A stretch of DNA of 64,000 nucleotides from an archaeon. GTDB lineage: Archaea > Micrarchaeota > Micrarchaeia > Norongarragalinales > UBA97. This document shows positions 11,007-56,099 of the stretch, piece by piece; the first letter of the stretch is position 1, and every line of letters begins with the position of its first letter. The position numbers were made by a program, and so were the translations under genes. The notes beneath the pieces were generated by a model. The model did no database searches. It worked only from the letters and a program-made list of their open reading frames with translations, and was not told the DNA's origin. Location of the stretch: the NCBI GenBank assembly GCA_020057405.1, contig JAGVFW010000013.1:23144-87143 (forward strand), written 5' to 3'.

Positions 11007-12155
11007 CTATTTTTCTGATGGCAGGAGCAATTTTAAGCTCCTCATGGACTGCTGAAAACCACTCCACGCTCCTCTCCTCATTAGCTCTTGTTGGAAGTGT
11101 TTCTTGTTGCTGCCGTCTTGAAGGTAGACGGCCATTGCGTGAATTATTGTTGCAAGGTCGGCGTCAATTCTCGTCGGGTCATTCTTTCCATAAAGCTCTT
11201 CGAACTTTTCCTGCACTAGGTAACGGTCGGCGTGAACGTACCTGGCCGTCATGTCCGAGTCCGGCCTCCAACCGAAGTAATACTTTAGCTGCTGGTCAGT
11301 CAGGTGCTTGGCCATTTCGCTTGCCCTGGCGTGCCGCCATGAATGCGGATTGAGTTTCTTGTTAATTCCCGCAAGTTTCTGTAGGCGAGCAATAGTGTTA
11401 CAAGCGGCGGCGTAAGACAATTGCTTGCCCCATCCGTTAAGCCACAGGGGAACGTTGGAATTTTTCTCGAACTTCCTCGGGTGAACGTCAAGATATACCT
11501 GCATGAATTCCAAGGCCAACGGCCAGCCAACTGGCACAATCCTTTCACCAGTCTTGCCGTCTAGCCTAACGAGCGTCTCGTTTCCTTCCTTGAAGACATC
11601 ACTTACTTTCAGGTTGAGCATTTCGCCGATGCGGGCGCCCGTAGCGTAAAGAAGAGAGATGAACGCCTTTTCCTGCAGGCTAGCGGTTTGGTCGATTATG
11701 CGCTTTACTTCCTCTTCTGAAATCAGTTTTGACGGGTGAAGTAACGCCGGATGAGGCTTTGCCATGTAGAAGTTGTCAAGTATGCCAGGGTAGCGTTTCC
11801 CTTCGCCTAACAGCCATTTATAGAAAGTGCGAGTGGTTAGGAAGAGGTCAAACTTGTAGGGTTCAGAAATCGGCTTGCCTCTCTTGGCAGTTGCCTGCCT
11901 TATCTTGCGGGCAAGCTCCTCCAGGTCGTCTTTGGTAGCGTCCTTGAAATGCTTGCCTAGAAGGTCAGAAATCTTGCGCAGTTGCCAAGAGCGCTTAAAC
12001 CGGAGTCGCAGGCTTTTTCCCTGCGCTTCCAGATAAGCTAGGTAGCGTTTCGCCAGTTCTGCTTCCTCAGGCTGCATCGCTTTGAAGGCGGTAAACTGCC
12101 TCGCAATCATCCGTTCCCCTTGCTCCAATTGTTCCGAGTTCATCTTCTCCACCAA
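11007..12155 (-). CDS. int: tyrosine recombinase/integrase (intact, non-partitioned type)
   Basis: The C-terminal catalytic region has …HSWRHARASE… (HxxR) and …RYVHADRY… (catalytic Tyr). There is an N-terminal SAM-like domain. Confidence 0.85.
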   Translation of the reverse strand: MVEKMNSEQLEQGERMIARQFTAFKAMQPEEAELAKRYLAYLEAQGKSLRLRFKRSWQLRKISDLLGKHFKDATKDDLEELARKIRQATAKRGKPISEPYKFDLFLTTRTFYKWLLGEGKRYPGILDNFYMAKPHPALLHPSKLISEEEVKRIIDQTASLQEKAFISLLYATGARIGEMLNLKVSDVFKEGNETLVRLDGKTGERIVPVGWPLALEFMQVYLDVHPRKFEKNSNVPLWLNGWGKQLSYAAACNTIARLQKLAGINKKLNPHSWRHARASEMAKHLTDQQLKYYFGWRPDSDMTARYVHADRYLVQEKFEELYGKNDPTRIDADLATIIHAMAVYLQDGSNKKHFQQELMRRGAWSGFQQSMRSLKLLLPSEK

Positions 12156-12379
12156 ACGCCACTACCAATTCAATTACCGCCTGCACCACCGTTTTTGAAA
12201 CTGCCATCCAAAACCACCTCCGCAAAACGCTTTTTGCAATAGAAGAGCAAATGAAATGCCTCAGGCTCAGAGAGTTCTTGTCTGCAAAGCGAGCACTTCA
12301 TTCGACTTACCTCTTTACCTACATACCTATAGTAGTATAACGATAGGTGTATTTAAGGCTTTCGGTATATAGGTATGAT

Positions 12380-12517
12380 ATGGCACGTGTGAAAACTAGT
12401 ATTTCAATCGATGAGGAAACCTGGAAGGAGTTTCGCAAGAAGTGCATCGACGTAGGTAAAGATGCCAGCACAGTTCTCGAGGAACTCATGCATCGGTGGT
12501 TAAAGGAAAAAAGCTAG
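12380..12517 (+). CDS. ribbon-helix-helix (CopG/Arc-like) DNA-binding protein, 45 aa; not in the ORF track
   Basis: MARVKTSISIDEETWKEFRKKCIDVGKDASTVLEELMHRWLKEKS is the β-strand then two-helix RHH pattern. It is divergent from the integrase. Confidence 0.6.
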   Translation: MARVKTSISIDEETWKEFRKKCIDVGKDASTVLEELMHRWLKEKS

Positions 12518-12544
12518 CCTCATTTTGAAGTTTTTGGTGAAATA

Positions 12545-13714
12545 ATGGCTGTTGAAGAAACGCTTCGGGTCGTCGAAGAAATGGATCGCGACAAAGGCAA
12601 ACGCGTAGCTAGAGTTAGTAGAGAGACAATGCAAAAATTGTCTCTTGAAACCGGGGACCGAATCAAAATTGTCGGCAAGAAAACAACCCTCGGGCTCGTC
12701 TTACCAGCACACACAGAAGACGAAAAACTCGATATCATTAGAATTAGCGACATTTTGAGAGCATCCGCGGCAGTTGAACTTAACCAATTAGTTAAAATAT
12801 CAAAAATCGATGGCGAAATAGCTAGTCTAGTCGTATTAGCACCAAAACAACCAACTGCCTACGCGCCCGGATTTGACCAGTACGTCAAAAAGAATCTCAT
12901 CGGCAAGCCTATCGAGACTGGAGAAATAGTTGAGATAAAAGTGTATGAAACTAGCTATCCATTTACCGTCATAACAACTGTTCCCGACAGTGTTGTCGTA
13001 GTTAGTTATGAAACCGAAGTAAAACTAAGTACCGAACCGTCTGGGATGATTGACTCAAAAATATTCAGAGATAGAAAGTTTTTAGAAAGAAAATTAAAGT
13101 TTTTGAAAAACCGAACGAATAAGTCCAAGGCCGTATTGACAACGGAGTGGGGTTTGACCGGAATAAACATTACCGGAAATATAATCCAACTCAATGAAGA
13201 TGGATTTAAACAATTGAACGTAACAACTGGAGACATAGTTGAAATCACTAACCAGTTTGACTCGGATTCATTAGAACAAAAAACGGTTTTAGCTAGAGTC
13301 GAACCAATTACCGTCGGAAAATTCAATTTTGCAAGAATGCCGGAGAGTATTAAGGACGAATTAATTCTTTCAAGTTCATCAAAAAATATTGAAATCCGAA
13401 AATCAACGCTTAAACCGGCTAAGAAAATAGCGCTAGTTCGTCAATCGTTCGGACACGCATTTTTACCATCAGATTACGAAATTAATCTCCTTAAATTAGA
13501 CTCGATGTTAGACCGATTATTGTTGCCCGGAGATTCTTTCGACGTTGCCGTAAAGAATTCCAGCATTCCATTAGTTGTTGAAAAAATCGAGCCCATCGGC
13601 CCTACCATTGTAACAAAGGACACAATCGTCGAATTTACTGAAAAGCCATTAAATCACAACCAGCTTCTTGAAGATTTCCAAGCATTACGACAATATCTAC
13701 AAAACAAAGCCTGA
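12545..13714 (+). CDS. stand-alone tandem Cdc48/VAT N-domain-like (double-psi barrel) protein with no ATPase domain
   Basis: …VARVSRETMQKLSLETGDRIKIVGKK… and a second …NVTTGDIVEITNQ… module resemble the CDC48_N fold. The gene is AT-rich. Confidence 0.45.
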   Translation: MAVEETLRVVEEMDRDKGKRVARVSRETMQKLSLETGDRIKIVGKKTTLGLVLPAHTEDEKLDIIRISDILRASAAVELNQLVKISKIDGEIASLVVLAPKQPTAYAPGFDQYVKKNLIGKPIETGEIVEIKVYETSYPFTVITTVPDSVVVVSYETEVKLSTEPSGMIDSKIFRDRKFLERKLKFLKNRTNKSKAVLTTEWGLTGINITGNIIQLNEDGFKQLNVTTGDIVEITNQFDSDSLEQKTVLARVEPITVGKFNFARMPESIKDELILSSSSKNIEIRKSTLKPAKKIALVRQSFGHAFLPSDYEINLLKLDSMLDRLLLPGDSFDVAVKNSSIPLVVEKIEPIGPTIVTKDTIVEFTEKPLNHNQLLEDFQALRQYLQNKA

Positions 13715-13782
13715 GTTAAACACAAAATAGCGTCCACTACTACCAACCATTAACTTTAAATTAACCTATCATTAAATAGTTA

Positions 13783-15165
13783 ATGATAACCGTGGACATT
13801 GCAACCCTGAAAAAATTGATTGAGTCCGGCGAGGGCAACACCGTAGAATTTCAGCAAGCTGTAGCAAAGGACACGGGCCGAACTATATGTGCTTTCGCCA
13901 ATACCGATGGCGGCCACCTGATTATTGGAGTGGAAAAGAATGGCGGAATCGTGGGACTTGAACGGGCAAAGTTAGATGACCTCCAACAAGCTGTTTCAAA
14001 CTCCTACAAAATTTGTAGCCCCGTTCCGTTAACACAAGTAGGCACCGTAGAAATCGACGGTAAGTATGTCCTAGTTATTTCAACCGCAAAGCTGGGGGAT
14101 GGCGTATGCTATTACGCAGATGAAATTTTGCTTAGGGTTGGAAGCACCAACCATAAACTCACCGGGCCAGCCATCGAAGAGTTTCTACGAAAAAATCGCG
14201 TAATCAACTTTGACTGGACGCGAAGTTCGGCCAAACTTCAAGACGTAGATACAGAAAAAATGAAAAAGTACATGAACCGTAGGTCGCCAAATTATTTGTT
14301 CGACCCTGCCAGCGAAAAGGCTTTAAAAAACCTCCTTATTTCGCTTCATTTGGCGGGAGAAAACGGCGACTTTTACGTAAGGAATGGCGGCGTCCTGTTC
14401 TTCGCCAAGCACCCTGAAACTTTTATCCCGCAAAACAAGGTGAAGTTAGTCCGATTCAAGGGCAAAATACCAGTGGACGTGTTGGACATACTCGTCCTAC
14501 AAAATACGCTTGTGGAAAATATCGAGGAAAGCCTGGCCTTTATCCGCCGAAGCACCCGCAAGAGCTACGAAATAAAGAACCTTGAACGAGAAGAAAAAAC
14601 TGAGTACCCTGAAATCGCAATCAGGGAAGCAATAGTCAACGCCCTCGTCCATCGCGACTACTTCAGCTCTGCCGTGGTACAGGTCAATGTCTTTGACGAC
14701 AGGATAGACATTGCAAACCCCGGAATGCTCCCAACAGGAATAAGCCCCGAGGATTTGTCATCACTTGGACTAGGAGTGCCACGTAACCCAATCATCTACC
14801 AGATGTTGATAGACATCAAGGTGGTTGAAGGCATAGGAACCGGCATTCCACGAATGATTTCGGCAATGCGGGACGCAGGATTGCCAGATCCCGAGTTCAG
14901 ACAATTGGGTCCATTGTTCAAAACCACGCTGTTTAACGCCTTCCCCAACCAAGCAGGCAATCTCAACGTCAGGCAAAGGCGCTCCCTGATTTACTTGAAG
15001 GATAACAGCATCATCACCGCACCACAGTACCGAAAAATGTTCAAGATAAGCCACCCAATCGCAGTCGACGACCTCAACAAGCTCATCAAGCTCGGACTCG
15101 TCAAGAAGAGAGGGCGGGGACCGGCAACGGCCTACGTACTAGCAAAACCTAAAATAAAGCAATAA
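13783..15165 (+). CDS. AlbA_2 (Schlafen-like) domain ATP-binding protein / putative transcription regulator
   Basis: The N-terminus, …GEGNTVEFQQAV…AFANTDGGHLIIGV…, is the AlbA_2 signature. A C-terminal HATPase_c_4-like region plus an HTH-like end follow. Confidence 0.6.
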   Translation: MITVDIATLKKLIESGEGNTVEFQQAVAKDTGRTICAFANTDGGHLIIGVEKNGGIVGLERAKLDDLQQAVSNSYKICSPVPLTQVGTVEIDGKYVLVISTAKLGDGVCYYADEILLRVGSTNHKLTGPAIEEFLRKNRVINFDWTRSSAKLQDVDTEKMKKYMNRRSPNYLFDPASEKALKNLLISLHLAGENGDFYVRNGGVLFFAKHPETFIPQNKVKLVRFKGKIPVDVLDILVLQNTLVENIEESLAFIRRSTRKSYEIKNLEREEKTEYPEIAIREAIVNALVHRDYFSSAVVQVNVFDDRIDIANPGMLPTGISPEDLSSLGLGVPRNPIIYQMLIDIKVVEGIGTGIPRMISAMRDAGLPDPEFRQLGPLFKTTLFNAFPNQAGNLNVRQRRSLIYLKDNSIITAPQYRKMFKISHPIAVDDLNKLIKLGLVKKRGRGPATAYVLAKPKIKQ

Positions 15166-15224
15166 TTAAGAACCTAAAGATAGGTTAATAAATACTTAAA
15201 GATACAATAATCTGGGAAGCAGAA

Positions 15225-15476
15225 ATGGAAATAACTGGAATTAAGCTTTTTGACAAACCGAACATAGCGCTTACTTTCGTCTTTAATGGAAATCAGAGGC
15301 AGGAAGTAAGCTTTAACTTGCTTGGAATAATTCTCATCGCCCTAAGCTTGTTCATCCTGGTTTTTTCAGAGTCATTCCCTCAGCCGATACAGGGGTGGTT
15401 TCAAAGTCTGGGGGCGGCAATGCTGATAGCTGGAATCGTAATTTACGGACTAACTAAAAAACAAAAAGGCAAGTAA
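15225..15476 (+). CDS. small membrane protein (2 TM)
   Basis: Hydrophobic. Lies inside the element. Confidence 0.35.
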   Translation: MEITGIKLFDKPNIALTFVFNGNQRQEVSFNLLGIILIALSLFILVFSESFPQPIQGWFQSLGAAMLIAGIVIYGLTKKQKGK

Positions 15477-15478
15477 CC

Positions 15479-15715
15479 ATGTTGCAAGAGCTACTTCAAT
15501 CAAAAAATCCCCTGATAAAAATAGTGACGATAACCGCGATTGGTTTAGTCGTCTTCATAGTCTTCGGGATTCTCTCAATCATCCTCCTGCCCTGGATAGC
15601 CCAAAAGCAGGGAGCGACTCTTGGTCCTCAGGAGTGGCTTGCGTTCTACACTAACCTACTTGCCGGAATTGCCACCAGCATTACCATCGGTATACTGTTC
15701 TTTCTTCAAAAATAG
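15479..15715 (+). CDS. small membrane protein (2 TM)
   Basis: Hydrophobic. Lies inside the element and is adjacent to the previous ORF. Confidence 0.35.
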   Translation: MLQELLQSKNPLIKIVTITAIGLVVFIVFGILSIILLPWIAQKQGATLGPQEWLAFYTNLLAGIATSITIGILFFLQK

Positions 15716-15770
15716 TCAAATACCGTCGGCGTTCTATGCCTCCGGTTCTCCCCGTCTTTTGACTTTTGGG

Positions 15771-15791
15771 CAAATCACCCCTGCGGCATTC
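15771..15791 (+). repeat. attR (distal copy of the 21-bp core)
   Basis: Exact 21-nt match to the tRNA-Phe 3' end. Confidence 0.75.
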
Positions 15792-34780: not shown

Positions 34781-35398
34781 TTAAGCGGGAGACGCCTTTG
34801 GCGCGGGCTTGACTTGCGCCTTTGCCGGGGCCGCGGGCTTTTCGGCTTTAGGGGCCTTGGGCGTTGCGGCGGGCTTGGGTTTAGCCTTTGAAGCCGCGCG
34901 CTGTGCGGCTTTCTTCGCCTTTCGGGTGGCTGCCTTGGCTTCATTCGCCTTCCTTACGGCATCGTCTACGACGAGCGTCACGAGTGCGAGGCCGGCGTCG
35001 TCCTTTGCCACGTGCACTTTGACGTGCTTGGGCGGGTTGCGCGAGCCGCGCGCCAGGATTAATGAGTTGATTTCGGTGCTGATGCGTACGTTCTCAAGCG
35101 CCGTTTTCGCGTGCCTTGCAAGAAACGCCTTTAGTAGCGACATTGCGCGGCGGCCGCGGTGCGAACGTGACTTTAGGTAGGCGTCCATGAGTGGGACGGT
35201 GTAAACGCGGTCGAGAACTAGCTTCTTTTTCTCTTCCTTCTTCTCGGAAGTCTTTGCCGGAGCGGCTGCCTTCACGGCGGGCTTTGCGTCTGCGGCCTCG
35301 GCCTTTTCCTTGGCTTCCTCGCGCTTTTGCCCCTGCTTGGCTACTTCCTGGTTTTCTTTTGCCTGTTGGATTGCTTCAACTTTGTCGGACATTTTCAA
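34781..35398 (-). CDS. rpl31e: ribosomal protein L31e with Lys/Ala-rich N- and C-terminal extensions
   Basis: The core …RVYTVPLMDAY…SRGSRNPPKHVKVHV… matches L31e. Confidence 0.8.
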   Translation of the reverse strand: MKMSDKVEAIQQAKENQEVAKQGQKREEAKEKAEAADAKPAVKAAAPAKTSEKKEEKKKLVLDRVYTVPLMDAYLKSRSHRGRRAMSLLKAFLARHAKTALENVRISTEINSLILARGSRNPPKHVKVHVAKDDAGLALVTLVVDDAVRKANEAKAATRKAKKAAQRAASKAKPKPAATPKAPKAEKPAAPAKAQVKPAPKASPA

Positions 35399-36371: not shown

Positions 36372-36695
36372 TTACTTGCCGCTCTTCTTCCTTGCAGACG
36401 GCGCCCGCTTTGCCGAAAAGCCCTTCTTCGCCGCCGTTCCGCACTCGATGCAGATGGTGAGGAGGAGCTTTTGTGCGCCCAAGCGGGTTTTGGCGGTGAG
36501 GCCCGGCACCAGAGGCGCGCCACAGCCCTTGCAGGCAACGGCAGGCCCTAGCGGGAAGCGGTGGCGCATGGCAATGGCGCGGGCAAGGGAAACATAGCGC
36601 TTGGCGAGCCTCTTGTCGCCCGCGCGCCATTTCCCAACCGCCATGCGCAATAGCTCGACGCACCGTTCCTTTGCAATCTGGTCTGCGGACTTCAA
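36372..36695 (-). CDS. rnp4: RNase P protein subunit Rpp21/Rpr2 (zinc ribbon)
   Basis: N-terminal helical region plus CKGCGAPLVPG…CIECG zinc ribbon. ~107 aa. Confidence 0.7.
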   Translation of the reverse strand: MKSADQIAKERCVELLRMAVGKWRAGDKRLAKRYVSLARAIAMRHRFPLGPAVACKGCGAPLVPGLTAKTRLGAQKLLLTICIECGTAAKKGFSAKRAPSARKKSGK

Positions 36696-36709
36696 GTTTT
36701 CACCGTTAG

Positions 36710-36856
36710 TGGGCCTACGGGGATTTGAACCCCGGCGCTCTGGTTGGCCTAGAAACGCGTCCGTTGCGGACGCGCGTCATATAAGACTTGCGCGAAAAAA
36801 GGGCGGGAAAACCAACCCCGTTTCACAGCGCTCTGGCCAGACTGAGCTATAGGCCC
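36710..36856 (-). tRNA. intron-containing tRNA: 5' acceptor/D-arm and 3' T-arm/acceptor are clear but separated by ~75 nt; isotype unresolved
   Basis: Minus strand reads GGGCCUA-UA-GCUC-AGUCUGGCCA-GAGC-G…[~85 nt]…CGGGG-UUCAAAU-CCCCG-UAGGCCC-A. The best fits need a short intron in or next to the anticodon stem plus a ~60 nt intron in the anticodon loop. Confidence 0.6.
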
Positions 36857-36897
36857 GTTGCAAGGAATATAATGCCTTGGCAGGCTAATTAATTCGT

Positions 36898-37395
36898 ATG
36901 GCTTTATCGAAGACCGGTCTCGGTTTGAAGGACGTCCTGACCCTAGCTAGCGCAGCCGCAGGCGTTGCCGCGATTTCGTTTGCGCTAAAAGGCAACATTC
37001 CAAACGCTTCGGCACTCATTGTCGCCGCCGCTTTTCTTGACTACGGCGACGGCGTTGTCGCACGCACTCTTTCAAGCGCAAACGAGTTTGGAAAACAGCT
37101 CGACTCGCTAGCCGACGCGATTAGTTTTGCAGCAGCGCCCGCGGTAATCGCACTTGTCCTCAATAACGGCCTGCCGTCGCTCATTGCGGCGATAGTCTAC
37201 GCCATTGCGGGTGCGTATAGGCTCGCTCGGTTCAACGTGCAGAAAGAAAAAGGCGTCTTCCACGGCCTGCCCGCCCCCGCGGCGGGAGTGTGTTTTGCGG
37301 CTGTTGCGCTAGTCGCACCCGACTACGCGTGGATCTCGCTATTCGCGCTTGCGGCGCTCATGGTAAGCTCAATTGAGTTTAGGAAAGTCGGTTAA
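36898..37395 (+). CDS. CDP-alcohol phosphatidyltransferase family protein
   Basis: DYGDGVVARTLSSANEFGKQLDSLAD is the D-x2-DG-x2-AR…G-x3-D-x3-D motif. Multiple TM helices. Confidence 0.65.
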   Translation: MALSKTGLGLKDVLTLASAAAGVAAISFALKGNIPNASALIVAAAFLDYGDGVVARTLSSANEFGKQLDSLADAISFAAAPAVIALVLNNGLPSLIAAIVYAIAGAYRLARFNVQKEKGVFHGLPAPAAGVCFAAVALVAPDYAWISLFALAALMVSSIEFRKVG

Positions 37396-39458: not shown

Positions 39459-40532
39459 ATGCTAGAACTCGTTGCAATCGCAGTTGCCCTCATCGGCACT
39501 GCAAAGGCTGCGTGGCAGGACTTTAAGACGAGCTTCATCGACGAGAAAATCACTTACTCCATGATTGGCGCTGGCTTTTCATTGACGTTAATGAACACGT
39601 TGAACGCTCCAATCGAACTTGCCCTCGCTTTTACAGCCATCATCTTAGCGGCAGGCTATTTCTTCCTCAAACAGTATCCGAATATTACACCCCAATCCAA
39701 ACACGGCGGGTTCTTCGTTATTTTTCTCCTCATAGTTCCACATCTCCTAAAACAAACTCAGGCATTTGGCCCGAACGTAGACTACGGGCTACTCATCTTA
39801 TCGTTTAACGGCGCGGCAGTCATCTTCGGCCTCGGCTGGCTCCTCTACAAGACGGGCAAGCTTGGCGGGGGGGATGTGCTGCTTTACACTGGCCTTCAAC
39901 TGCTTTTGCCCGTAAAGCCGCACGCACTTGACGGCATCATCCTGCCTTACGTTCTTACTCCCGACAAGCTATTCCAATGGCAACTGCTTTCCGACATCGG
40001 CCTGCCGTTCTTTCTTAGCATCTTTCTCCTTAGCACGATGCTTGCGCTCTTGGGCAGCTCGATTGTATACGCTTGGAGGTTGCGCAAGCTCAAGCTAAAA
40101 CCCGAATTGCTCTCCGCCGGCCTTGGCTTGGTTGCAGTAATCGGGTTTGCGTACGTGATGAACGTAATGGGCGCCTCACTCAAGGCAACCGCCTTCTACG
40201 CAATATTCCTCTTGCCTTCGGCGCTGCTATTGGCGTTTAGAAAGCAGCTGATGGACGAAGTCATCGTCCAGAAAGTGACTATAGCGCAAGTGGAGGACGA
40301 GGACATTCTCGTGCTCGACAAGATGCCCCAAGCCATTGTAAAGAAATACTCGCTTGGGCCTGTGCTCACCAAGTCGGAGGTCGAGAAGCTAAAACTCATC
40401 GTCAAGAAAGAGAAGATAACGAAATTCCCGGTCGCAAAAGTGCTTCCGCGCCTTGGGCCCTACGTTTTCCTCGCAGTGTTGCTTGGCGTGCTTGGGCTCG
40501 ACTTGTTTACAATCATTCTGGCAATCGCGTAA
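39459..40532 (+). CDS. polytopic membrane protein, possibly an A24-family prepilin/preflagellin peptidase-like
   Basis: Many TM helices. An Asp near the first TM and KLGGGDVLLY resemble the two catalytic Asp regions of type IV prepilin peptidases. This is weak. Confidence 0.4.
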   Translation: MLELVAIAVALIGTAKAAWQDFKTSFIDEKITYSMIGAGFSLTLMNTLNAPIELALAFTAIILAAGYFFLKQYPNITPQSKHGGFFVIFLLIVPHLLKQTQAFGPNVDYGLLILSFNGAAVIFGLGWLLYKTGKLGGGDVLLYTGLQLLLPVKPHALDGIILPYVLTPDKLFQWQLLSDIGLPFFLSIFLLSTMLALLGSSIVYAWRLRKLKLKPELLSAGLGLVAVIGFAYVMNVMGASLKATAFYAIFLLPSALLLAFRKQLMDEVIVQKVTIAQVEDEDILVLDKMPQAIVKKYSLGPVLTKSEVEKLKLIVKKEKITKFPVAKVLPRLGPYVFLAVLLGVLGLDLFTIILAIA

Positions 40533-41574
40533 AGCCCGTGCCGCTAACTTTCACTTCGCCTTTTTCGCCTTCGTTACCTCTAAGTTCAATTTCGCACTCC
40601 GGCAGGAACTGCCTTAGTACCCATGCGTTGGTGATTAAGTGGCGGTCCACGCGGCTGACGGTAAAGCTGCTTTCGCCTTTCGCTAGCGCGGCGTAAAGCA
40701 ATAGCTGGTCAGCCAAGTGCTCCTCAAGCGTTGTGCCGGCCTCAAGAAAAACCTTGAGCGCATGGACTGCCTCGCCGGCAACCTTGTGCGCCGGCTTGCT
40801 CTTCTCGCCGAGGGCAGAAAAGCCGTTGGCCAACCCGTTTGACTCGGCAAGCAAAAACAGCTCCGCGCCGATGCCGATTGATGGCGCGTTAAGCAACTCT
40901 ATCTTCGCGTCGCTTTGGCCCATATCCGCAAGCTCCCTCAAGGCTTTCGCCTTCATGCGCTCGGCAATCTCAAGCGGCAGGTTCGAGACAATCGAGTGAC
41001 CGCGGATTTTAGGGTGCGGGTTTGTTGCCTCGGGCGCAATCGGCTTTAGTGACTCGACAGGCTTGATTGTAGACTCAAGCACGCCGGCGCCTTGCGGAAA
41101 CCAGCCCCAGCGCTTGACGTCAACGGAAACGCGGCCGCCAAATTTGGCGAGCGCTGGAGCGAAGGCCTTTTGCATGAAGAAGCCGCTTGGCGCAAACGGG
41201 TTTGACGTTCCGCCGGTGATTTTTACTCGCGAGTCGGCGGAGGCGAAGAGAAGCGGGGGTAGAATTGTCTGCAGGACTAGCGTCGTGCTCCCCGCACTGC
41301 CGATGTCGAAGTCGTAGTCGCCGCCCTTGACTTGCGATGGTGAGAAATGGACTTCCTGCGAGCCTAGACTTGCGCCTTTGACAGCCGCGTCGCAAATTTC
41401 GGCGGCGGCCTTCACTGCAGTCAGGTGCTGAAGCTGCAGGCCGGGGTTGGAGCGCCCCGCGCGAATGCGCGAAATGCGGACGGGCTTTTGAAGCAGCGCG
41501 CTAAGCGACAGGCTCGTACGCAGGATTTGCCCGCCACCCTCAAGGTAGGAACCGTCGATTGAAATAAAATCCAC
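40513..41574 (-). CDS. rtcA: RNA 3'-terminal phosphate cyclase
   Basis: MDFISIDGSYLEGGGQILRTSLSLSAL… is the RtcA N-terminus, with repeat-domain architecture over 353 aa. Confidence 0.85.
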   Translation of the reverse strand: MDFISIDGSYLEGGGQILRTSLSLSALLQKPVRISRIRAGRSNPGLQLQHLTAVKAAAEICDAAVKGASLGSQEVHFSPSQVKGGDYDFDIGSAGSTTLVLQTILPPLLFASADSRVKITGGTSNPFAPSGFFMQKAFAPALAKFGGRVSVDVKRWGWFPQGAGVLESTIKPVESLKPIAPEATNPHPKIRGHSIVSNLPLEIAERMKAKALRELADMGQSDAKIELLNAPSIGIGAELFLLAESNGLANGFSALGEKSKPAHKVAGEAVHALKVFLEAGTTLEEHLADQLLLYAALAKGESSFTVSRVDRHLITNAWVLRQFLPECEIELRGNEGEKGEVKVSGTGFTRLPE

Positions 41575-47945: not shown

Positions 47946-48692
47946 ATGCCAGTAGAACGGGTCCAGAGCGGCATTTACGGCCTTGACGAGCTGATTACGG
48001 GAGGGTTCCCAAAGGGCCGCACCATCCTCATTAGCGGCGCGTGCGGCACGGGCAAGAGCATTTTGTGCAGCCAGTACCTCTACCGCGGGGCCGCCGAGTT
48101 CGACGAACCCGGAGTTTACGTCGCTTTTGACGAGCGGCCGGAAGAAATTAGGAGCGACATGGCGAACTTCGGCTGGGACATCGAAGCAATGGAAAAGAAA
48201 GGCAAGCTCGCGATTGTTGACGTTACTAGCGCCAAAGCCGGCGTGCCAAGCGAGGAAGACCACGCAATCCTCCCAGGCCAGCTTGACATTGACAAGATTC
48301 TCGTCGACGCGATTAGCGTGGCGCGCAACATTGGCGCGAAAAGAATGGTTTTCGACTCTATTCCCTCAATGGCCTTCCGCATGGACACCGTCCACGAAAT
48401 CCGCAAAGGCATCTTGAAGCTCGCCTACATTTCGGCCAAAGCCGGCTTGACGACGCTGATTACAACTGAAGCCGAGGAATCGCCTTCCGGCGTTCCAATC
48501 AAGTTTTCCCGCTACGAAGTCGAAGAATACGTTGCAGATGGCGTCGTCGTCCTAGGACTCTTCGGCGGCGGCCAAAGCGCCTTCCGCACACTCCACGTCC
48601 GCAAGATGCGAGGCACCAAACACGCCCTCGAACTCCACCCAATGGAAATAGGCGACAAGGGAATAACAGTCAAGAAGATAGGCGGAATTTAG
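47946..48692 (+). CDS. KaiC-like RecA-superfamily ATPase (single domain), copy 1
   Basis: …GIYGLDELITGGFPKGRTILISGACGTGKS… Walker A in a KaiC/RadA-like context. ~248 aa. Confidence 0.75.
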   Translation: MPVERVQSGIYGLDELITGGFPKGRTILISGACGTGKSILCSQYLYRGAAEFDEPGVYVAFDERPEEIRSDMANFGWDIEAMEKKGKLAIVDVTSAKAGVPSEEDHAILPGQLDIDKILVDAISVARNIGAKRMVFDSIPSMAFRMDTVHEIRKGILKLAYISAKAGLTTLITTEAEESPSGVPIKFSRYEVEEYVADGVVVLGLFGGGQSAFRTLHVRKMRGTKHALELHPMEIGDKGITVKKIGGI

Positions 48693-49225
48693 CTTCCACT
48701 GGTTTTTGGTTTCAAAATAAAAACACACTCTGCTTCCCCAGTACAAACACACTTGGTTTCTACGCATTCAATCTCTTTGTCATATATTGTCGTAAAAATA
48801 CCCGCAAAAAAACCCGCTATAAAATAATCCATAACTACCTTGGTCTTTTCGTTTTTTCGTAAATCATCTTTAGCTAATGAAGAAATTGCTCCGACGATTA
48901 TACTCCCATCTGGGTTTGAAGAAATTCGGTTTATTTTCGCAAGACCTTGTAACTCCACGATATTGCGCCATAACGCTACGCTCTCCATGCCCTTAACCTT
49001 AAAACGCTTATCTAAATCCTCGGAAAAATCCTTAGATGTCCTAAAACCCAAAGTGTACAGAAGTTTTCCAGATTTGGCACTGTTTCCTTCGTTAAGAAGA
49101 CTTCTCAAATGAGAGTGGATAGACGCAGGGTATAACAAATACGTAGAGTTGAAAATAGCCACATCGCCTTCAATAAAGCGCAATTGTTTTGCCATAAGCA
49201 ATTTTTTAAAAAAGCCGGATAACAA
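48689..49225 (-). CDS. V4R-domain (hydrocarbon/small-ligand binding, COG1719-like) protein
   Basis: C-terminal …ECVETKCVCTGEAECVFIL… is the V4R C-x-x-G…C-x-F pattern. The gene is AT-rich. Confidence 0.55.
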   Translation of the reverse strand: MLSGFFKKLLMAKQLRFIEGDVAIFNSTYLLYPASIHSHLRSLLNEGNSAKSGKLLYTLGFRTSKDFSEDLDKRFKVKGMESVALWRNIVELQGLAKINRISSNPDGSIIVGAISSLAKDDLRKNEKTKVVMDYFIAGFFAGIFTTIYDKEIECVETKCVCTGEAECVFILKPKTSGS

Positions 49226-49699
49226 CTAAGTCTCCCCACGTATTCGTTTTATTTTTTCCCACTTTTCAAAATTCAGTACTAAATCGGCTTCTTGGTCGCT
49301 AACAATCGTGCTAACCAAAACTTCTCGGATTTTGGGATTACGCACTAGTTTTGATATAGAAGCTGAAAGCGCTCGAGAAAACTTATCAGAACGCAATTTT
49401 GTAGTAAAATGCGCGGATATTGCTACTGGAACACCCGTCATAATCTCAATAAAGCCGCCTTTTTCGAAGAGAAACCGCTTGTAAAACTTTTCGCCAACGA
49501 TATCTTCACCAATGAAACAGGTTTTTTCTCCGAAGTTTCTCTCCAGTGACTTAACGAATTCAAACAAAGCACGATCAGTTTCAGATTCTGAATTTTGAGT
49601 CGCCAGCGCTACGAGATCCGCAGAGTCCGGCGTATCTGAACCAAAAGGTAGCGCTTCGGGAAGATCGATTAAAGTCACATACGAGTGTCTTAGTTTCAT
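49226..49699 (-). CDS. hypothetical protein (157 aa), co-oriented and contiguous with the V4R gene
   Basis: ORF only. AT-rich. Confidence 0.35.
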   Translation of the reverse strand: MKLRHSYVTLIDLPEALPFGSDTPDSADLVALATQNSESETDRALFEFVKSLERNFGEKTCFIGEDIVGEKFYKRFLFEKGGFIEIMTGVPVAISAHFTTKLRSDKFSRALSASISKLVRNPKIREVLVSTIVSDQEADLVLNFEKWEKIKRIRGET

Positions 49700-49872
49700 C
49701 CGGTACCTCCCACTAACACATTACGCATACTGTAACGCTATTTAAAAACACTAATCTACCCGCATCTCAAAAGACACAGCAGACTTAAAAAGAGACCTAG
49801 CCTACGGGTATATACGCTAAACGCAGGTAGAAGGAAAGAAACTAACCGATAGTAAAAAAACTGGGGTAGATT

Positions 49873-51171
49873 TTGTTGAAAAACTTGCAAGTTGGCATTG
49901 GCTTTTCGGAAGTAGCAGATTCAAAAAAGGCGGCTAAGGCGGCCTCTGAACAAGCGCTGAAAACACTTAAGAAAAAGCCAACAATCACCTACGTTTTCTT
50001 CGCAGGGGAATACGATCCTAAAGAAATAAGCAGGGGGTTAGTTGAAGCACTTGGCGATAGTGAATTTGTCGGGGGTTCCGGTGACGCGGTATTTTTTGAG
50101 GACAAGATATACCGGACCGGAATAGTGGTTGCGGCAATATACAGCGAATATCTCCACGTAGGAATCTCCTCAATCGAAGGAATATCAAAAGACCCCCACG
50201 GACTAGCTAGGAAAGTAACTGCAGAAGCAATGAAGAAAATTGCAATAGACAAGTATGTAGATCCATACTTACAGTTTACTAGAATGAGAAATAGCAGCAT
50301 AAAGTGGATGATTAAAAAACCATCATTCCACATTACAGTTTTTGCGAAAGGTATGAAATTGCCTCAGATGGGAGAAGAAACCAAAATATTACAAGGAATA
50401 ACTAGGGAAATGGGATTCAATGTTCCGATTTGGGGGGGCAGTTTCGGAGTACACCTCGAAAAGCTATTCGAACAAAAACCATACGACATTCACCTCTTAC
50501 ATTCAGGTAAAATACTCACAGACGGCTTAATCGTAGTAGTGAATTCAACAAGTCTACTCTACGGACTATCCTTAGCGCATGGTTCGCAACGGACAAACAA
50601 AATAGGCTTCATTTCTGGCGTTACGGGGGGCGGGTACGTGATAACGGGAATTTCCGGTAAAAACCCCATAGACTGGTATTGTGAAAACCTAAACATACCT
50701 CGAAAAGAGTTTTTAAAAAATTCCATAGTTATTACTCAGAAAAACCCATTAGGAATTCCTGACAACTATGGCGGATTTATTATTAGGGCGGGCGGAGTAC
50801 CCGCTGGAGAAAATCTAGCCTTTACTGCAACGTTCGAAGAAGGTTGGCCGGTATACATCATGGATTCGAGCATAAGCAATATGGCCACGGCACCGGGTAA
50901 AGTAATCGAAGACCTGCGTGCAAGTACCAACGAAGCAACTCCGGCTCTAGCTCTAGCAATCATCTGCGCATCATGCAGAATCGTCACAGGAGAAAAAGGC
51001 GTCGCCGGAGAACTCAAAGAATTAAAGAAAAAGCTCGGCGGGGCGCCAATCGTAGGTTTCTCGTCATTTACTGAAATTGGAGCTAAAGAGGGCGTACCCA
51101 CTACGGTACAGCACGAAGCTACAACCCTACTAACAATTTACGATAAATTGTTGCACGAAGTTAGGGATTGA
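49873..51171 (+). CDS. FIST-domain (FIST_N + FIST_C) putative small-ligand sensor protein
   Basis: N-terminal …PTITYVFFAGEYD… and C-terminal …PIVGFSSFTEIG… match the FIST N and C signatures. Confidence 0.6.
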   Translation: MLKNLQVGIGFSEVADSKKAAKAASEQALKTLKKKPTITYVFFAGEYDPKEISRGLVEALGDSEFVGGSGDAVFFEDKIYRTGIVVAAIYSEYLHVGISSIEGISKDPHGLARKVTAEAMKKIAIDKYVDPYLQFTRMRNSSIKWMIKKPSFHITVFAKGMKLPQMGEETKILQGITREMGFNVPIWGGSFGVHLEKLFEQKPYDIHLLHSGKILTDGLIVVVNSTSLLYGLSLAHGSQRTNKIGFISGVTGGGYVITGISGKNPIDWYCENLNIPRKEFLKNSIVITQKNPLGIPDNYGGFIIRAGGVPAGENLAFTATFEEGWPVYIMDSSISNMATAPGKVIEDLRASTNEATPALALAIICASCRIVTGEKGVAGELKELKKKLGGAPIVGFSSFTEIGAKEGVPTTVQHEATTLLTIYDKLLHEVRD

Positions 51172-51182
51172 GTTGAACCTGC

Positions 51183-52730
51183 GTGACACCTATTCGAAAC
51201 GCAACAATTTTAGTGCTGGGCGGAGCAGGACAAGTAGGCTTCGAATTTTGTTCACAAATCCTATCCAAAAATCCACTGAAGCTCATTATTTGCGATATAA
51301 ATGAGAAAAAAGTTAAGTCTGCCATTAGTAGATTAAATTCAAAAAGTCGTACGACCGCAAAAATCGGAGAATGGGGAGATATTTTTTCAGATAAACCGAC
51401 AGCGAAGTCTGCGCTCATTCAAATAAAAAGCAGCATTGTCGAACTGACGAACCGAACTGGCGTGCTGGCGGCTAGCGATGCCTCAGATACCTTCCTTTAC
51501 AAGCTGATATGCAAATACAAGCCCGACATCCTTGTTGATGCGGTCAATACAGCTACTGCACTGGCTTACAAAGATAGTCGCGAATCAAAAACGCGCGAAT
51601 CTACGCAACAAAACGACCTACCAGAACCGGTGCCGATTATGCAATTAATTCGACACACGCAAGTGTTGTTTCAGGCGTTCAGAAAAGCACAAACTAAGGA
51701 ATATATAAAAATAGGAACTGGCGGAACCGGCGGCCTTGGTTTCACTTTGCCATATACACACGGTGAAAATGAAGTTCCGTCAAAACTCCTAATGAGTAAA
51801 TCTGCCGTTGCAGGCGCGCAAACCATGCTTTTGTGGGTTTTGGCAAGAACTCCAATGATGCCAATAATAAAGGAAATTAAAGTTACGGCACTCATAGGAT
51901 GGAGAGAAATTGGGCGGGGTGAATTCACCATCGACTCCGAACCAATCGCACTCTATGATTGCCCAATTGAAAAGAGCCTAACTATCAGCGATGCGCTAAA
52001 AAAACACAATTCAATCAGATTAAATAAAAATCTACACGGGACGTGGATTGACACTGGAGAAAATGGAATATTTACTAAAGATATGTTCGCGGCTATTACT
52101 TCGAGAAACAACATGGAGCTAATTACTCCAGCAGAAATAGTCAAAATAATCATAGACGAAATTGAAGGCAAGCACACCGGGAAAGACACAATATCGGCCA
52201 TGGATAATGCAGTACTTGGCCCTACACTAATCGGAAGCGGAATGCGGCAAGTCGCTATAGATCGAATGAAGGATGACGACGAAGTTGTGGCAAGTATACC
52301 GACGCTAGGCCCCCTAACGGCAAAAATATTGTGGGAAGCCGCATTACTGAAAACCTCTTTCGAGAATATCGATCAAGTAATAAAAGAAAATGAAAAACAT
52401 ATATCGGAAAGGACTTTTGAAAAAATAAGCAGAGATCAAACGCTGAGAGCTAAAATAATATCCATAGGAATACCCATCCTCTTACCTTCTGGTAAGCTTC
52501 TTCGCGGTCCAACTATATCAATTCCAGATCAGAGTCGAGTATCCTCAAACCTGCGAGATGTCGAGACTTGGGCCGCCACTGGCTGGGTAGACCTTAGGCC
52601 TAAAAACTGGCTGCTTTGGAAAACCTGGCTCCGCGACTATCGCACATCTAATAACAATTCATTCAATATCGGCGAGATTTGCGGATGGATTTTTGCGCAT
52701 AAGCTTGGCGGAATGAGGATAAAACGGTGA
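51183..52730 (+). CDS. Rossmann-fold NAD(P)-binding oxidoreductase of uncertain family (515 aa)
   Basis: N-terminal ILVLGGAGQVGFEF…LIICDINEKK… (GxGxxG plus an acidic residue after β2) and …PDILVDAVN…. The remainder is unassigned. Confidence 0.5.
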   Translation: MTPIRNATILVLGGAGQVGFEFCSQILSKNPLKLIICDINEKKVKSAISRLNSKSRTTAKIGEWGDIFSDKPTAKSALIQIKSSIVELTNRTGVLAASDASDTFLYKLICKYKPDILVDAVNTATALAYKDSRESKTRESTQQNDLPEPVPIMQLIRHTQVLFQAFRKAQTKEYIKIGTGGTGGLGFTLPYTHGENEVPSKLLMSKSAVAGAQTMLLWVLARTPMMPIIKEIKVTALIGWREIGRGEFTIDSEPIALYDCPIEKSLTISDALKKHNSIRLNKNLHGTWIDTGENGIFTKDMFAAITSRNNMELITPAEIVKIIIDEIEGKHTGKDTISAMDNAVLGPTLIGSGMRQVAIDRMKDDDEVVASIPTLGPLTAKILWEAALLKTSFENIDQVIKENEKHISERTFEKISRDQTLRAKIISIGIPILLPSGKLLRGPTISIPDQSRVSSNLRDVETWAATGWVDLRPKNWLLWKTWLRDYRTSNNNSFNIGEICGWIFAHKLGGMRIKR

Positions 52731-53884
52731 TAACTAACTTCGAGGAGCTTTTAACAACATCCTCACGCACATTAGACCCGAAACAGATTTCACCAGCCGT
52801 ATGGGCTTCAAAAAATTGGGAAAAACTAGATAGGAAAAGTACTGAAACGACCCTTCTTCCGTTTATTAAGTTTCAAATTAATCGCGCTGGCAAAGCAATG
52901 CCAGATATTTACTCGCCATACACGAAAAAAAATACGCCAATAAACGAGTTTGAAGATTTTTTTAATTTACCTGCACTAGTAAAAGACACGGGAACCCACT
53001 CCATCGGATTTAGAGAAAAGGTCAAACTTAATCCGTATATACTATTACCAAAAGATACGAGTTCAGCTACGGTCGTCTATAAATCAGGCGGTACTCGGGG
53101 TACAGCCACTCCCACGTTTCTAACCACTTGGGATCACGAAGTTGAAGCGCTTTCCTTAAAAAAGTGCTTCGAGTATATGGGAATAAAGAAAGATGTGGTT
53201 GCGCTTAATTCTTACAATCCGACACATAAAGGCGGACAACTGATTACCAATGCACTCTTAGCTCTGGGCGTAAAAGTTATACCTAGGCGTACAACCGATA
53301 CGCCAACAGAAATGATTAACACGATAAAAACCTACGGCGTATCAATGTTAGCAACAGTACAAGGCCCACTTAGTGAAGATGATAATGTTCGAAAAGGCGC
53401 AGGGATAGATTTCCTATCACTTATTGAAGCGGGACAAGATGTACTCGAACAACACTTAGACTTGTTGTTCATTACCGGCTATTCGCTCATTCCGGAAGTT
53501 ATTGCTTGGTCAGAAAGTAATAAAAAAAACCTCGCTACGTGTTTAGGTTCTTCGGAAGCAATTCCCCAAGCAACTAGCACAGTAAAAGGTACAAAGTGCA
53601 AATACAACAACCTGCACCTGATTAACGGCCCCCACTACCTCGAAATCGTAAAGCTGGAATCTGGAACACTCGTTCCAGTAAAACGGGGAGAAACTGGCCT
53701 GCTACTATACACCACCATTGCAAGAGACGGTACGATATACATCCGATACGCTCCGGGTGACGCGGCAACACTAACGGCTTACGGTGGAGAATGCGACTGT
53801 GGAATACGTACACCCATCATTTCAAATATTCGAAGAATAGATATACCTGAAGATACTATTGCCGCCGGCTGTTGCATAGGGTAG
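52727..53884 (+). CDS. adenylate-forming acyl-protein synthetase-like enzyme (LuxE / PaaK / F390-synthetase superfamily)
   Basis: …VYKSGGTRGTATPTF… is P-loop-like [ST]SG[ST]xG. …YAPGDAATL… is present. The C-terminus ends …GCCIG, as with the LuxE acyl-Cys near its C-terminus. Confidence 0.5.
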   Translation: MITNFEELLTTSSRTLDPKQISPAVWASKNWEKLDRKSTETTLLPFIKFQINRAGKAMPDIYSPYTKKNTPINEFEDFFNLPALVKDTGTHSIGFREKVKLNPYILLPKDTSSATVVYKSGGTRGTATPTFLTTWDHEVEALSLKKCFEYMGIKKDVVALNSYNPTHKGGQLITNALLALGVKVIPRRTTDTPTEMINTIKTYGVSMLATVQGPLSEDDNVRKGAGIDFLSLIEAGQDVLEQHLDLLFITGYSLIPEVIAWSESNKKNLATCLGSSEAIPQATSTVKGTKCKYNNLHLINGPHYLEIVKLESGTLVPVKRGETGLLLYTTIARDGTIYIRYAPGDAATLTAYGGECDCGIRTPIISNIRRIDIPEDTIAAGCCIG

Positions 53885-55311
53885 AACAAATGACCCACCT
53901 AAAATTTAACAACTATATAGGCGGAAAGGAAGTTCTACTTTCAGGACAAACTTTTACAGTTGAAAGCAGCATATATCCCGACTATCAGTTTCTAGCTCCT
54001 GAAGCGGGACTATTTGATATTAAAACGGCAATTTCTAAGGCGCGTACATCTGTAAAAGACTGCCACGCACTTACCTTTAGCGAACGAATAGAAATACTTG
54101 AACGAGCGGCGGCTTCTTTTTCGCCAACTGCAACTGATTTCGAGTTCGCTGTCAAAACCACAGGCATGCCCATATCAAATGTTAGGTCTTTTTCAGAAGA
54201 TATTCGAAATATTTACCGCAATGTACCGATTGCTATAGAAAAGCACATAGGCCGGCTGGGCGACCGGTTCGGACATGACCTTAGACACTCAGAAGGCACC
54301 GTGCATTTTGAACCAATAAATGGAATAGTATATGCAATTACGCCAGGTAACGATATTCGCGTAACCGCATTCATTGCAAGTTGGCTAGTAGCCTTAGGAA
54401 TACCCGGAATATTTAAATGCTCAAAAAACGACCTCGCGTTTGCTAATAAAACTTTACAAAAGTTAGTCGAGGCGGGCTATCCGGAAGGCGGTCTTAACCT
54501 GCTTTGTTGGGATACACAAAAAAAGGAAAATGCTAAATTAAATTTCGAATTGGTAGATTCTTCGAAAGTTGTTTGGGCATATGGAGCCGATTCGACCGTT
54601 GATTTCATGCTTCGATTTGAAACAAAATCTGAAAACCAAGTTTTAGATCACTTTTCGGACAAAACCATACTAAGACATGCAACCGGAAGAACCGCAGCTA
54701 TATCCTCTCCGAAAACAGACATCGAAAAAGTATCTGAACGCGCGACTACCTCCGCTTTAACTTGGCCGATTGGTTGTAACTCGCTAAAAGCACTATTTAA
54801 CGCATCCAACAAAAACACCGAGGTTGTTAGCGCCCTAACGGAAAAGTTCGAGCAACTTGCTAAACATACCGGCGACCCCATGAAAAACACTACGAAGATA
54901 GGCTTCACGGAACCAAAACTACTAGCCCAGGTGTGGAACAGAATAAATGACCTCAAAAAAACCGGTCAGCTTAGCTTGCTTACTGGAGAAAAAATTAGTG
55001 AAAGACAATGCACGCCGCTACTCTTAGAAACTCTCGACCTTAATTCGGAATTCCTAAACACTGAATTTTCTACTTATCTACTAACTATCAAAAACTGCTC
55101 CGGGTTTAGTGAAGCGATAGATGAGGTCAATGTAACTTCAGGTGCGAATAGACGACTCGTAGTAACTGTTTTTTCTTCTGAAAATGAAAAACTCGGAAGA
55201 ATTCACGCGCACCGAATAAATATGAACACCATAACAACCGATCTCGACCTATTATTTCAAGAAGGAAACGACTACTTTAGCAAACTGACTACGCCCCAAC
55301 TTCATAAATGA
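53872..55311 (+). CDS. LuxC-like acyl-CoA/acyl-protein reductase (divergent ALDH superfamily)
   Basis: Segment-by-segment similarity to the LuxC pattern. AITPGNDIRVTAFIASWLVAL matches LLAGNVPLSGIMSILRAIL. GIFKCSKNDLAFAN matches CIIKTSSTDPFTAN. VVWAYGAD matches VIVAWGGPD. ERQC matches QRAC (catalytic Cys). Confidence 0.6.
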   Translation: MHRVEQMTHLKFNNYIGGKEVLLSGQTFTVESSIYPDYQFLAPEAGLFDIKTAISKARTSVKDCHALTFSERIEILERAAASFSPTATDFEFAVKTTGMPISNVRSFSEDIRNIYRNVPIAIEKHIGRLGDRFGHDLRHSEGTVHFEPINGIVYAITPGNDIRVTAFIASWLVALGIPGIFKCSKNDLAFANKTLQKLVEAGYPEGGLNLLCWDTQKKENAKLNFELVDSSKVVWAYGADSTVDFMLRFETKSENQVLDHFSDKTILRHATGRTAAISSPKTDIEKVSERATTSALTWPIGCNSLKALFNASNKNTEVVSALTEKFEQLAKHTGDPMKNTTKIGFTEPKLLAQVWNRINDLKKTGQLSLLTGEKISERQCTPLLLETLDLNSEFLNTEFSTYLLTIKNCSGFSEAIDEVNVTSGANRRLVVTVFSSENEKLGRIHAHRINMNTITTDLDLLFQEGNDYFSKLTTPQLHK

Positions 55312-55325
55312 ACGAATAGAACGCA

Positions 55326-56099
55326 TTAAAGCTTCAAAACGTCTTCATCGGAAACAAACTCGATTCCGCTCTTTGAAAATCTATACGATAACGCCTTCCG
55401 TTCATGATCAGTATACCTCATTTTTCTAACTTGCAAAGATCGAAATTCGGCAGTACCTATTCCAAAAAAACTCAGGAAAATTACACCATCGGCAAGAAAT
55501 TCTGAAATTCCGTCCGAACTCATACCTTTTCCTCGCTCTGGCAATTCTGAAGTGAGAAAAATTGTCGCACCCAACGCCCTTAGACTAGAAATAACCGTAG
55601 CTAACATTCGCTTAGTCATAGTTTTCTCCGAAGTACTCCTAGGTGGAATTTTATCTAAACTTCGTGAAGGCACCCCTCCGCGCTTAAGCAATACTTCCTT
55701 TGCAAAATCAGATACCAAGGCAAACTCAGAAAAAGTACTCATAGAGTCTAAAACCAGCCGTTGCGGAGAAAACTGACGAATCGCAGTGAAAATTTCGCTC
55801 AAAAAAGACTCGTCCTTTAATATATCTACATAAACTATTTTGAGCAAGTTTTTATCTACCCAAAGATTCAAATCCCACCCGTATTGGGCAGCTTGCTTAT
55901 TCAATTCTTCAAACGTCTGTTCGGTTGAAACGTACATACTTCGCTCATTATTTGCTATCCCCTGAAGTAAGAAATGCAAACATAAGGTACTCTTACCAGT
56001 TCCGGCCCCCCCCGAAATTAATACTACGTTCCCCTTAGGAATGCCCCCACTAATGGCCTCATCCAAGCCGATAATGCCAGTTTTAACTCTCTCAATCAT
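55326..56099 (-). CDS. KaiC-like RecA-superfamily ATPase (single domain), copy 2; ~35% identical to copy 1
   Basis: …GIIGLDEAISGGIPKGNVVLISGGAGTGKS… plus a Walker B-like VLDSMS. Confidence 0.75.
   Translation of the reverse strand: MIERVKTGIIGLDEAISGGIPKGNVVLISGGAGTGKSTLCLHFLLQGIANNERSMYVSTEQTFEELNKQAAQYGWDLNLWVDKNLLKIVYVDILKDESFLSEIFTAIRQFSPQRLVLDSMSTFSEFALVSDFAKEVLLKRGGVPSRSLDKIPPRSTSEKTMTKRMLATVISSLRALGATIFLTSELPERGKGMSSDGISEFLADGVIFLSFFGIGTAEFRSLQVRKMRYTDHERKALSYRFSKSGIEFVSDEDVLKL

Follow-up and report, generated by a model that had tools for sequence, protein, structure and literature searches.

Micrarchaeota are already known for interrupted tRNAs (PMC3239211). In ARMAN-2 (Candidatus Micrarchaeum acidiphilum), 56% of the tRNA genes are interrupted, with non-canonical and multiple introns among them, and the ARMAN-2 epsilon2 endonuclease cleaves in vitro a pre-tRNA-Ile(UAU) that carries a 25-nt intron at position 37/38 in a strict bulge-helix-bulge (BHB) motif, and also cleaves a relaxed BHB (PMC3239211). 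The ARMAN lineages possess tRNA-Ile(UAU) and are without TiaS and tRNA-Ile(CAU) (Fujishima et al. 2011, PMC3239211). This isoacceptor is otherwise rare in Archaea, being found in 2 of 167 genomes, those of Korarchaeum cryptofilum and Nanoarchaeum equitans (PMC6000648). Genes with up to three BHB introns have been described in Thermoproteales/Crenarchaeota (Sugahara et al. 2007, 2008; reviewed in PMC4090602), and 29/30 is a listed site of both non-canonical introns and gene splitting (PMC4090602). In Eukaryotes, the 37/38 intron of tRNA-Ile(UAU) pairs with the anticodon in yeast and in Cyanidioschyzon merolae, whose gene has three introns including additional ectopic BHB-type introns, and in yeast Psi34 and Psi36 of this tRNA are made by Pus1 in an intron-dependent manner (PMC9602550).

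The locus described here lies in a 64,000-nt stretch of archaeal DNA (the window) and is very probably the gene for tRNA-Ile(UAU) of a member of the Micrarchaeota (DPANN), interrupted by two BHB introns, one of 38 nt at 29/30 and one of 34 nt at 37/38. It shares with ARMAN-2 the phylum-level lineage, the UAU isoacceptor and a canonical 37/38 intron with an hBHBh' motif. Whereas the ARMAN-2 gene, known to us by description, has a single intron of 25 nt, the window gene has a 34-nt intron at this site and an extra one of 38 nt at 29/30, leaving a middle exon of only 8 nt. Like the multi-intron genes of Thermoproteales/Crenarchaeota, among whose non-canonical sites is 29/30, it combines a canonical with a non-canonical intron in the same gene; unlike them it belongs to the DPANN, probably with another endonuclease architecture, and its two-intron layout has been kept for one tRNA across many divergent relatives. 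The tRNA-Ile(UAU) gene of Korarchaeum cryptofilum also has an intron, but Korarchaeum and Nanoarchaeum are other lineages and the Korarchaeum gene, compared by description, has only one. The yeast and C. merolae genes are similar in the pairing of the 37/38 intron with the anticodon, but they are eukaryotic genes processed by eukaryotic enzymes.

Much of the tRNA can be read directly in the sequence, namely the acceptor stem GGGCCUA/UAGGCCC, the D-arm GCUC/GAGC, the T-arm CGGGG-UUCAAAU-CCCCG and the discriminator A. The 147 nt match the Rfam tRNA model RF00005 over its full length (1-71) with a score well above the gathering score of 29 bits (Table 1), and the alignment places an 83-nt insertion within the anticodon arm. 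The universal tRNA positions U8, A14, G18G19, A21, U33, purine 37, U54U55C56, A58 and G53:C61 are all intact, and the interrupted tRNA gene of the original prediction is on this evidence real. In its default mode ARAGORN reported no gene at the locus. A 9-nt internal repeat that had also been pointed out, CCAGAGCGC, is indeed present at pre-tRNA positions 21-29 and 114-122. Its copies lie in unrelated parts of the tRNA (the D-loop/D-stem/26/27 region, and the anticodon-stem 3' strand with the variable loop), shuffling these 147 nt produces an exact repeat of at least 9 nt in 3.5% of cases, and the repeat is treated as a coincidence. The variable loop AGCGC is atypical, with relatives having AGGUC or UGGUC.

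To place the junctions, the precursor was numbered 1-147 (index k = 36857 minus the window coordinate) and two procedures were used. All pairs of cut sites were scanned for BHB motifs, defined by a central helix of 4 bp, by flanking helices and by a pair of 3-nt bulges in which the cut follows the second base, and a 17-nt anticodon arm was built from index 29-117 by the removal of one or two segments in every possible way. This enumeration gave 10,880 one- and two-intron solutions. The best, with cuts 31/70 and 77/112 (a slash between indices or bases marks the cut), scored 13.0 and the runner-up 9.0, and it was the only solution to combine a 5-bp Watson-Crick stem, U33, a purine at 37 and a complete central helix (H=4) at both BHBs. 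Since the bases flanking each cut differ, both junctions are unambiguous. That a single canonical intron would not suffice, as had been proposed, agrees with the finding that single-intron solutions reached at most three of five anticodon-stem pairs. At the top of the first BHB scan stood an 88-nt 'intron' (index 23-110), which was rejected; its removal deletes the whole anticodon arm, and its source is a fortuitous match of GGCC with CUAG which, judged by eye, the relatives checked do not conserve.

Table 1. Features of the tRNA locus and its neighbours in window coordinates. H, h and h' are the lengths in bp of the central, outer and inner helices of a BHB.
Feature	Position	Strand	Remarks
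Complete pre-tRNA-Ile(UAU) coding region	36710..36856	-	147 nt; Rfam RF00005 43.4 bits; CCA not encoded
Exon 1	36826..36856	-	31 nt; acceptor 5' strand, D-arm, position 26, anticodon-stem 27-29 (CUG); from enumeration and BHB scan
BHB 1 central helix, 5' strand GCGC	36828..36831	-	index 26-29; followed by bulge UG/U with the 5' splice site
Intron 1	36788..36825	-	38 nt; index 32-69; non-canonical, 29/30; 3-4-3 BHB, h=3, H=4, h'=4
BHB 1 central helix, 3' strand GCGC	36790..36793	-	index 64-67; followed by bulge AA/G with the 3' splice site
Exon 2, GUCUUAUA	36780..36787	-	8 nt; tRNA positions 30-37 including the anticodon; GTCTTATA common to all homologs
Anticodon UAU (reads AUA, isoleucine)	36781..36783	-	ARAGORN on the spliced sequence: tRNA-Ile(tat)
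Intron 2	36746..36779	-	34 nt; index 78-111; canonical, 37/38; 3-4-3 BHB, H=4, h=5 after removal of intron 1, h'=2
BHB 2 central helix, 3' strand UAGG	36748..36751	-	pairs with C32-A35 (36785..36782); followed by bulge CC/A
Exon 3	36710..36745	-	36 nt; position 38, stem 3' strand ACCAG, variable loop AGCGC, T-arm, acceptor 3' strand, A73
AT-rich box AATTAATTA	36886..36894	-	-38 to -30 relative to the 5' end of the mature tRNA; putative TATA box for the tRNA gene
rnp4 (RNase P protein Rpp21/Rpr2)	36372..36695	-	TTG start at 36695; Pfam PF04032 39.4 bits, cut-off 29.3
CDP-alcohol phosphatidyltransferase gene	36898..37395	+	divergent neighbour; Pfam PF01066; followed by SRP54

The second BHB has the central helix CUUA(72-75):UAGG(106-109) and the bulges UA/U and CC/A, and the intron it delimits forms an 8-bp hairpin, CGCGUCCG-CAA-CGGACGCG, which a G-U pair extends to 9 bp in the computed fold. 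A search of both introns by eye for C/D-box motifs (RUGAUGA, CUGA) found none. Removal of both introns yields the sequence GGGCCUAUAGCUCAGUCUGGCCAGAGCG-CUGGU-CUUAUAA-ACCAG-AGCGC-CGGGGUUCAAAUCCCCG-UAGGCCC-A, in which the anticodon arm has a 5-bp stem CUGGU/ACCAG and a 7-nt loop CUUAUAA with U33, A37 and the anticodon UAU, and which ARAGORN identifies as tRNA-Ile(tat). Several elements of the original prediction are recovered in this product, in that there are two introns, one of them non-canonical and one in the anticodon loop, BHBs can be placed at both junctions, and the mature tRNA has the expected 75 nt.

The intron sizes and the anticodon, on the other hand, were predicted differently, as an intron of about 13 nt in the 5' strand of the anticodon stem and one of about 60 nt in the loop, giving a tRNA-Gly(UCC) or a GCC, UUC or UGC variant. 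A 13+59-nt solution of this kind does occur in the enumeration, with a score of 6.5; its cuts 31/45 and 52/112 yield the same stem CUGGU/ACCAG, and ARAGORN accepts the product as tRNA-Gly(tcc). Its score is, however, to be set against 13.0 for the 38+34-nt solution, position 37 becomes a C, and at both junctions it has only three of the four central-helix pairs and no inner helix. It would moreover throw away GUCUUAUA, which is kept beside the anticodon stem in all 38 homologous genes, and the tRNA body (GGGCC..UAGCUCAG..AGAGCG, A73) aligns with the tRNA-Ile(UAU) of Micrarchaeota, which argues against a glycine tRNA. We regard this arrangement as extremely improbable. Still less credible, with practically no chance of being correct, is a 95-nt tRNA-Arg(CCG) with a long extra arm and a single 53-nt intron after index 33. 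This was the sole call of ARAGORN in its intron mode (-i), but the junctions have no BHB (H=2, h=0, h'=0), the loop lacks the U33 geometry, and the same program likewise mislabels clear homologs as Ser, Gln or Gly. Arg tRNAs are not known to belong to class II, the tRNAs whose variable arms are long. The 38+34-nt arrangement with the anticodon UAU is therefore the one adopted below.

Computed folding bears on the arrangement only in part. The minimum-free-energy fold of the precursor (-73.8 kcal/mol, z = -5.7) contains the central helix, the 5' bulge and the inner helix of BHB 1; in the rest of the fold an alternative helix pairs GGCCAGAG (D-loop/D-stem) with CUAGGCC (3' end of intron 2), a complementarity that, judged by eye, is at best partial in the relatives checked. 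Conformers with full BHBs built by hand reached only -45 to -47 kcal/mol against -73.8, and the full BHB conformers were not reproduced when the precursor and both splicing intermediates were folded. Therefore the case rests on comparative data, and energy was not used to derive the splicing order.

Two sets of homologs were assembled. The first was obtained by S19e-anchored retrieval, which gave 80 genome loci, and six of these, all from Micrarchaeota (L002, L005, L006, L013, L063 and L068), contain this tRNA, again with GTCTTATA in the anticodon loop and interrupted at 37/38. In intron mode ARAGORN named only the L002 gene correctly as Ile and gave the other five wrong identities (Ser-TGA, Gln-CTG, Gly-ACC) because it misplaced the intron, and the two-intron homolog of L013 was missed by Rfam at the gathering threshold. 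The second set came from a metagenome scan with the pattern AGAGYG-N{18,48}-GTCTTATA-N{30,60}-GGTTCRAATCC, which returned 70 loci. These and the window were filtered for at least four of five anticodon-stem pairs and at least six of seven acceptor pairs, a filter that 23 of the 71 pattern matches failed, and two unrelated tRNA-like sequences (L083 and L103) were taken out by hand. This left 32 distinct metagenomic genes besides that of the window with a 29/30 intron and an anticodon-loop intron, the latter at 37/38 or, in nine of them, at 38/39. Since the scan selects for an anticodon-loop intron, the frequency with which this intron is absent cannot be read from the metagenome set.

Across the 33 homologous genes, with strands taken at fixed offsets from the anchors, the central helix of BHB 1 is paired in 126 of 132 cells, compared with 2-61% when the partner strand is slid by 1-3 nt as a control. 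Within this helix there are double changes, from C:G to U:A at 27:66 and between C:G, A:U and U:G at 29:64, and the inner helix of BHB 1 shows A:U, U:A, G:C and C:G at every position. The outer helix is uninformative, being invariant by construction because the pattern fixes AGAGYG and GTCTTATA. At BHB 2 the central helix is complete (H=4) in most homologs, with UAAG, UAGG or UGGG opposite CUUA. The 30 distinct spliced sequences fold into cloverleafs in which 99.2% of cells are paired and the anticodon stem is 100% paired, percentages that the stem filter inflates somewhat, with covariation in all four helices. Compensatory changes affect three of the five anticodon-stem pairs (27:43, 28:42 and 29:41), and these are pairs between exon 1 and exon 3 which form only once both introns are gone. 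At the level of sequence, these comparative data settle the junctions and the identity of the tRNA.

Several homologs vary the theme. In a clade of nine (L084, L086, L087, L091, L092, L116, L118, L120 and L121) the second BHB fits 38/39 (UUAU:GUAA or GUAG), and since both flanking bases are A the mature sequence is unchanged. The syntenic Micrarchaeota tRNA-Ile(UAU) gene at L013:2929-3063 has its second intron, of 22 nt, at 24/25 in the D-stem and not at 29/30; placed by hand, it has a 4-bp central helix TCAG:CTGA with the bulges AG/G and AA/C. Extra introns have therefore been gained or have moved within this tRNA family. Two metagenomic relatives, L146:150-239 and L102:1535-1634, have some 15 additional nucleotides where the variable loop meets the T-stem, which suggests three-intron versions of the gene, the acceptor 5' strand of L102 being unrecognisable. 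Upstream of the rps19e cluster of an unclassified archaeal genome bin, at L028:1094-1241, lies a different 147-nt tRNA (Rfam 37.4 bits) that looks like a tRNA-Gly(UCC) with one intron in the anticodon loop and one in the T-loop.

The assignment to isoleucine draws on the anticodon UAU and discriminator A73 in a tRNA-Ile-like body, and on the full-length alignment of the spliced product with the UAU tRNAs of named Micrarchaeota genomes (76 columns, mean column identity 85%). In 21 genes of the window AUA accounts for 41 of 406 Ile codons and, since the codon is in use, a decoder for it is needed. The gene is probably this genome's AUA decoder, because no other was seen in the 64 kb, and neither were tRNA-Ile(CAU) and TiaS, and because the ARMAN genomes are reported to be without the alternative system. 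It is very unlikely that the locus is instead a decaying pseudogene, or a remnant disrupted by insertion, that is not processed to a working tRNA. The unusual variable loop and a computed fold that does not show both BHBs would suit such a remnant, but the universal tRNA positions and both BHBs are all intact, dozens of divergent genes share the architecture and show compensatory substitutions in it, the AUA codon is used and a promoter-like box is present.

The organism is placed among the Micrarchaeota by its ribosomal protein S19e, whose best named relatives are Candidatus Micrarchaeota, and by the syntenic loci, which belong to the same phylum. The expectation that multiple introns would point to Thermoproteales or Thaumarchaeota is not upheld by these data. 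The order tRNA, rnp4, rps19e recurs in L013 and L068. The closest relatives by Rps19e, L081 (87% identity) and L001, are on contigs that end inside or just before rnp4, where the tRNA region is unreadable, and L082 is too short. On the other side of the tRNA, the pairing with the divergent phosphatidyltransferase gene is kept in L119, L149 and L098/L113, and in L119 it extends to SRP54 (65% identity), rnp4 and rps19e; the two-intron genes therefore include relatives of the organism of the window.

Directly downstream of the tRNA, after a gap of 14 nt, lies the RNase P subunit gene that had been predicted there, an Rpp21 homolog by its Pfam match, and a Shine-Dalgarno-like GGTGA (36704..36700) precedes its TTG by 5 nt. 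No T-rich terminator is found between the two genes. Since the terminator is lacking and the GGTGA is in place, the tRNA and rnp4 may be co-transcribed. Beyond rnp4 follow genes for ribosomal protein S19e, a dsDNA-binding protein, L39e, L31e and eIF6. The L31e ORF (34781-35398, -) encodes 205 aa, of which the Pfam domain covers residues 64-131 only, the remainder forming Lys/Ala/Pro-rich tails, and these extensions seem real because L081 has a similar L31e of 207 aa. Upstream of the tRNA, AT-rich boxes occur at about the same distance as the putative TATA box of the window gene in most of the 13 homologs displayed. The spacer between the tRNA and the phosphatidyltransferase gene (36857-36897, 41 nt) contains two AT-rich boxes, a layout shared by L013 and L119. 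The second box, ATTATATT (36866-36873), is 25-32 nt upstream of the ATG at 36898, a distance that points to a leaderless phosphatidyltransferase mRNA expressed from a back-to-back promoter.

From established archaeal tRNA biology, the following steps can be proposed. The 147-nt precursor would be transcribed from the TATA box about 30-38 nt upstream, with a short leader and possibly together with the rnp4 mRNA. Its ends would be trimmed by RNase P and RNase Z, the latter separating the tRNA from the rnp4 mRNA, and CCA would then be added. The tRNA splicing endonuclease would cut both 3-nt bulges of each BHB to leave 2',3'-cyclic phosphate and 5'-OH ends, and an RtcB-type ligase would join exon 1, the 8-nt exon 2 and exon 3. 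The introns are probably removed one after the other, most simply with intron 1 first, since the D-stem lends its 3' strand to BHB 1, since BHB 1 shares C72 and U73 with the central helix of BHB 2, and since the outer helix of BHB 2 has two pairs before the removal of intron 1 and its full five pairs only afterwards. In this order the 8-nt exon would remain covalently bound throughout. The non-canonical position implies an endonuclease of broad specificity, which would be of the epsilon2 or (alpha-beta)2 type, with its gene in another part of the genome. When 60 ORFs in the 64-kb window were scanned with Pfam, no splicing endonuclease (EndA), RtcB or TiaS was found. An RNA 3'-terminal phosphate cyclase (RtcA) gene is present at 40513-41574 (-), 3.7 kb from the intron-containing tRNA; the RtcA family makes the 2',3'-cyclic phosphate ends that are used by RtcB-type ligation.

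Two further regions of the window stand out by their composition. At 10378-15791 there is probably a mobile element integrated at tRNA-Phe(GAA) (10378-10451), the last 21 nt spanning the 3' end of this tRNA (CAAATCACCCCTGCGGCATTC) being repeated exactly at 15771-15791. Between the 21-nt copies are genes for a tyrosine integrase (11007-12155, -), a CDC48-N-domain protein and a Schlafen/AlbA_2 protein, and the G+C content is 42-46% compared with about 56% elsewhere. A second stretch of low G+C (41-46%) at 48000-56000, which may be an acquired island, encodes two KaiC-like ATPases, V4R-domain proteins, a FIST protein, an SDR-like protein and an aldehyde dehydrogenase.

The gene is a normal, functional-looking one, and both the phenomenon and its occurrence in this lineage have been described before. 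Its one addition is modest, namely that a 29/30 plus 37/38 layout with an 8-nt anticodon exon has been kept across many divergent environmental relatives. For annotation the correction is a practical one, in that default tRNA finders miss the gene or misidentify it as Arg, Ser, Gln or Gly, and an AUA decoder that is missed or mislabelled would make the tRNA set look incomplete.

An anticodon-loop intron is found in every unbiased example of this tRNA, that is, in the window, in the six Micrarchaeota genomes and, from the literature, in ARMAN-2, which invites the idea of an intron-dependent modification of the anticodon. That this intron, through its pairing with C32-A35, is kept for the modification of U34 and U36 is a speculation that we think unlikely to be right. 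If it were true, the modification would stop the UAU anticodon from misreading AUG and would constitute an archaeal counterpart of the Pus1 system that makes Psi34 and Psi36 in yeast, and the extra intron at 29/30 would impose a further, ordered step on the processing of the 8-nt anticodon exon.

Independently of this idea, the gene is one more sign that Micrarchaeota and related DPANN retain a tRNA-Ile(UAU) interrupted at the canonical site, and it shows the stable retention, in one sub-lineage, of a second intron at 29/30, so that the anticodon lies on an exon of 8 nt. Such a picture agrees with what is known of interrupted tRNAs, which occur together with splicing endonucleases of broad specificity.
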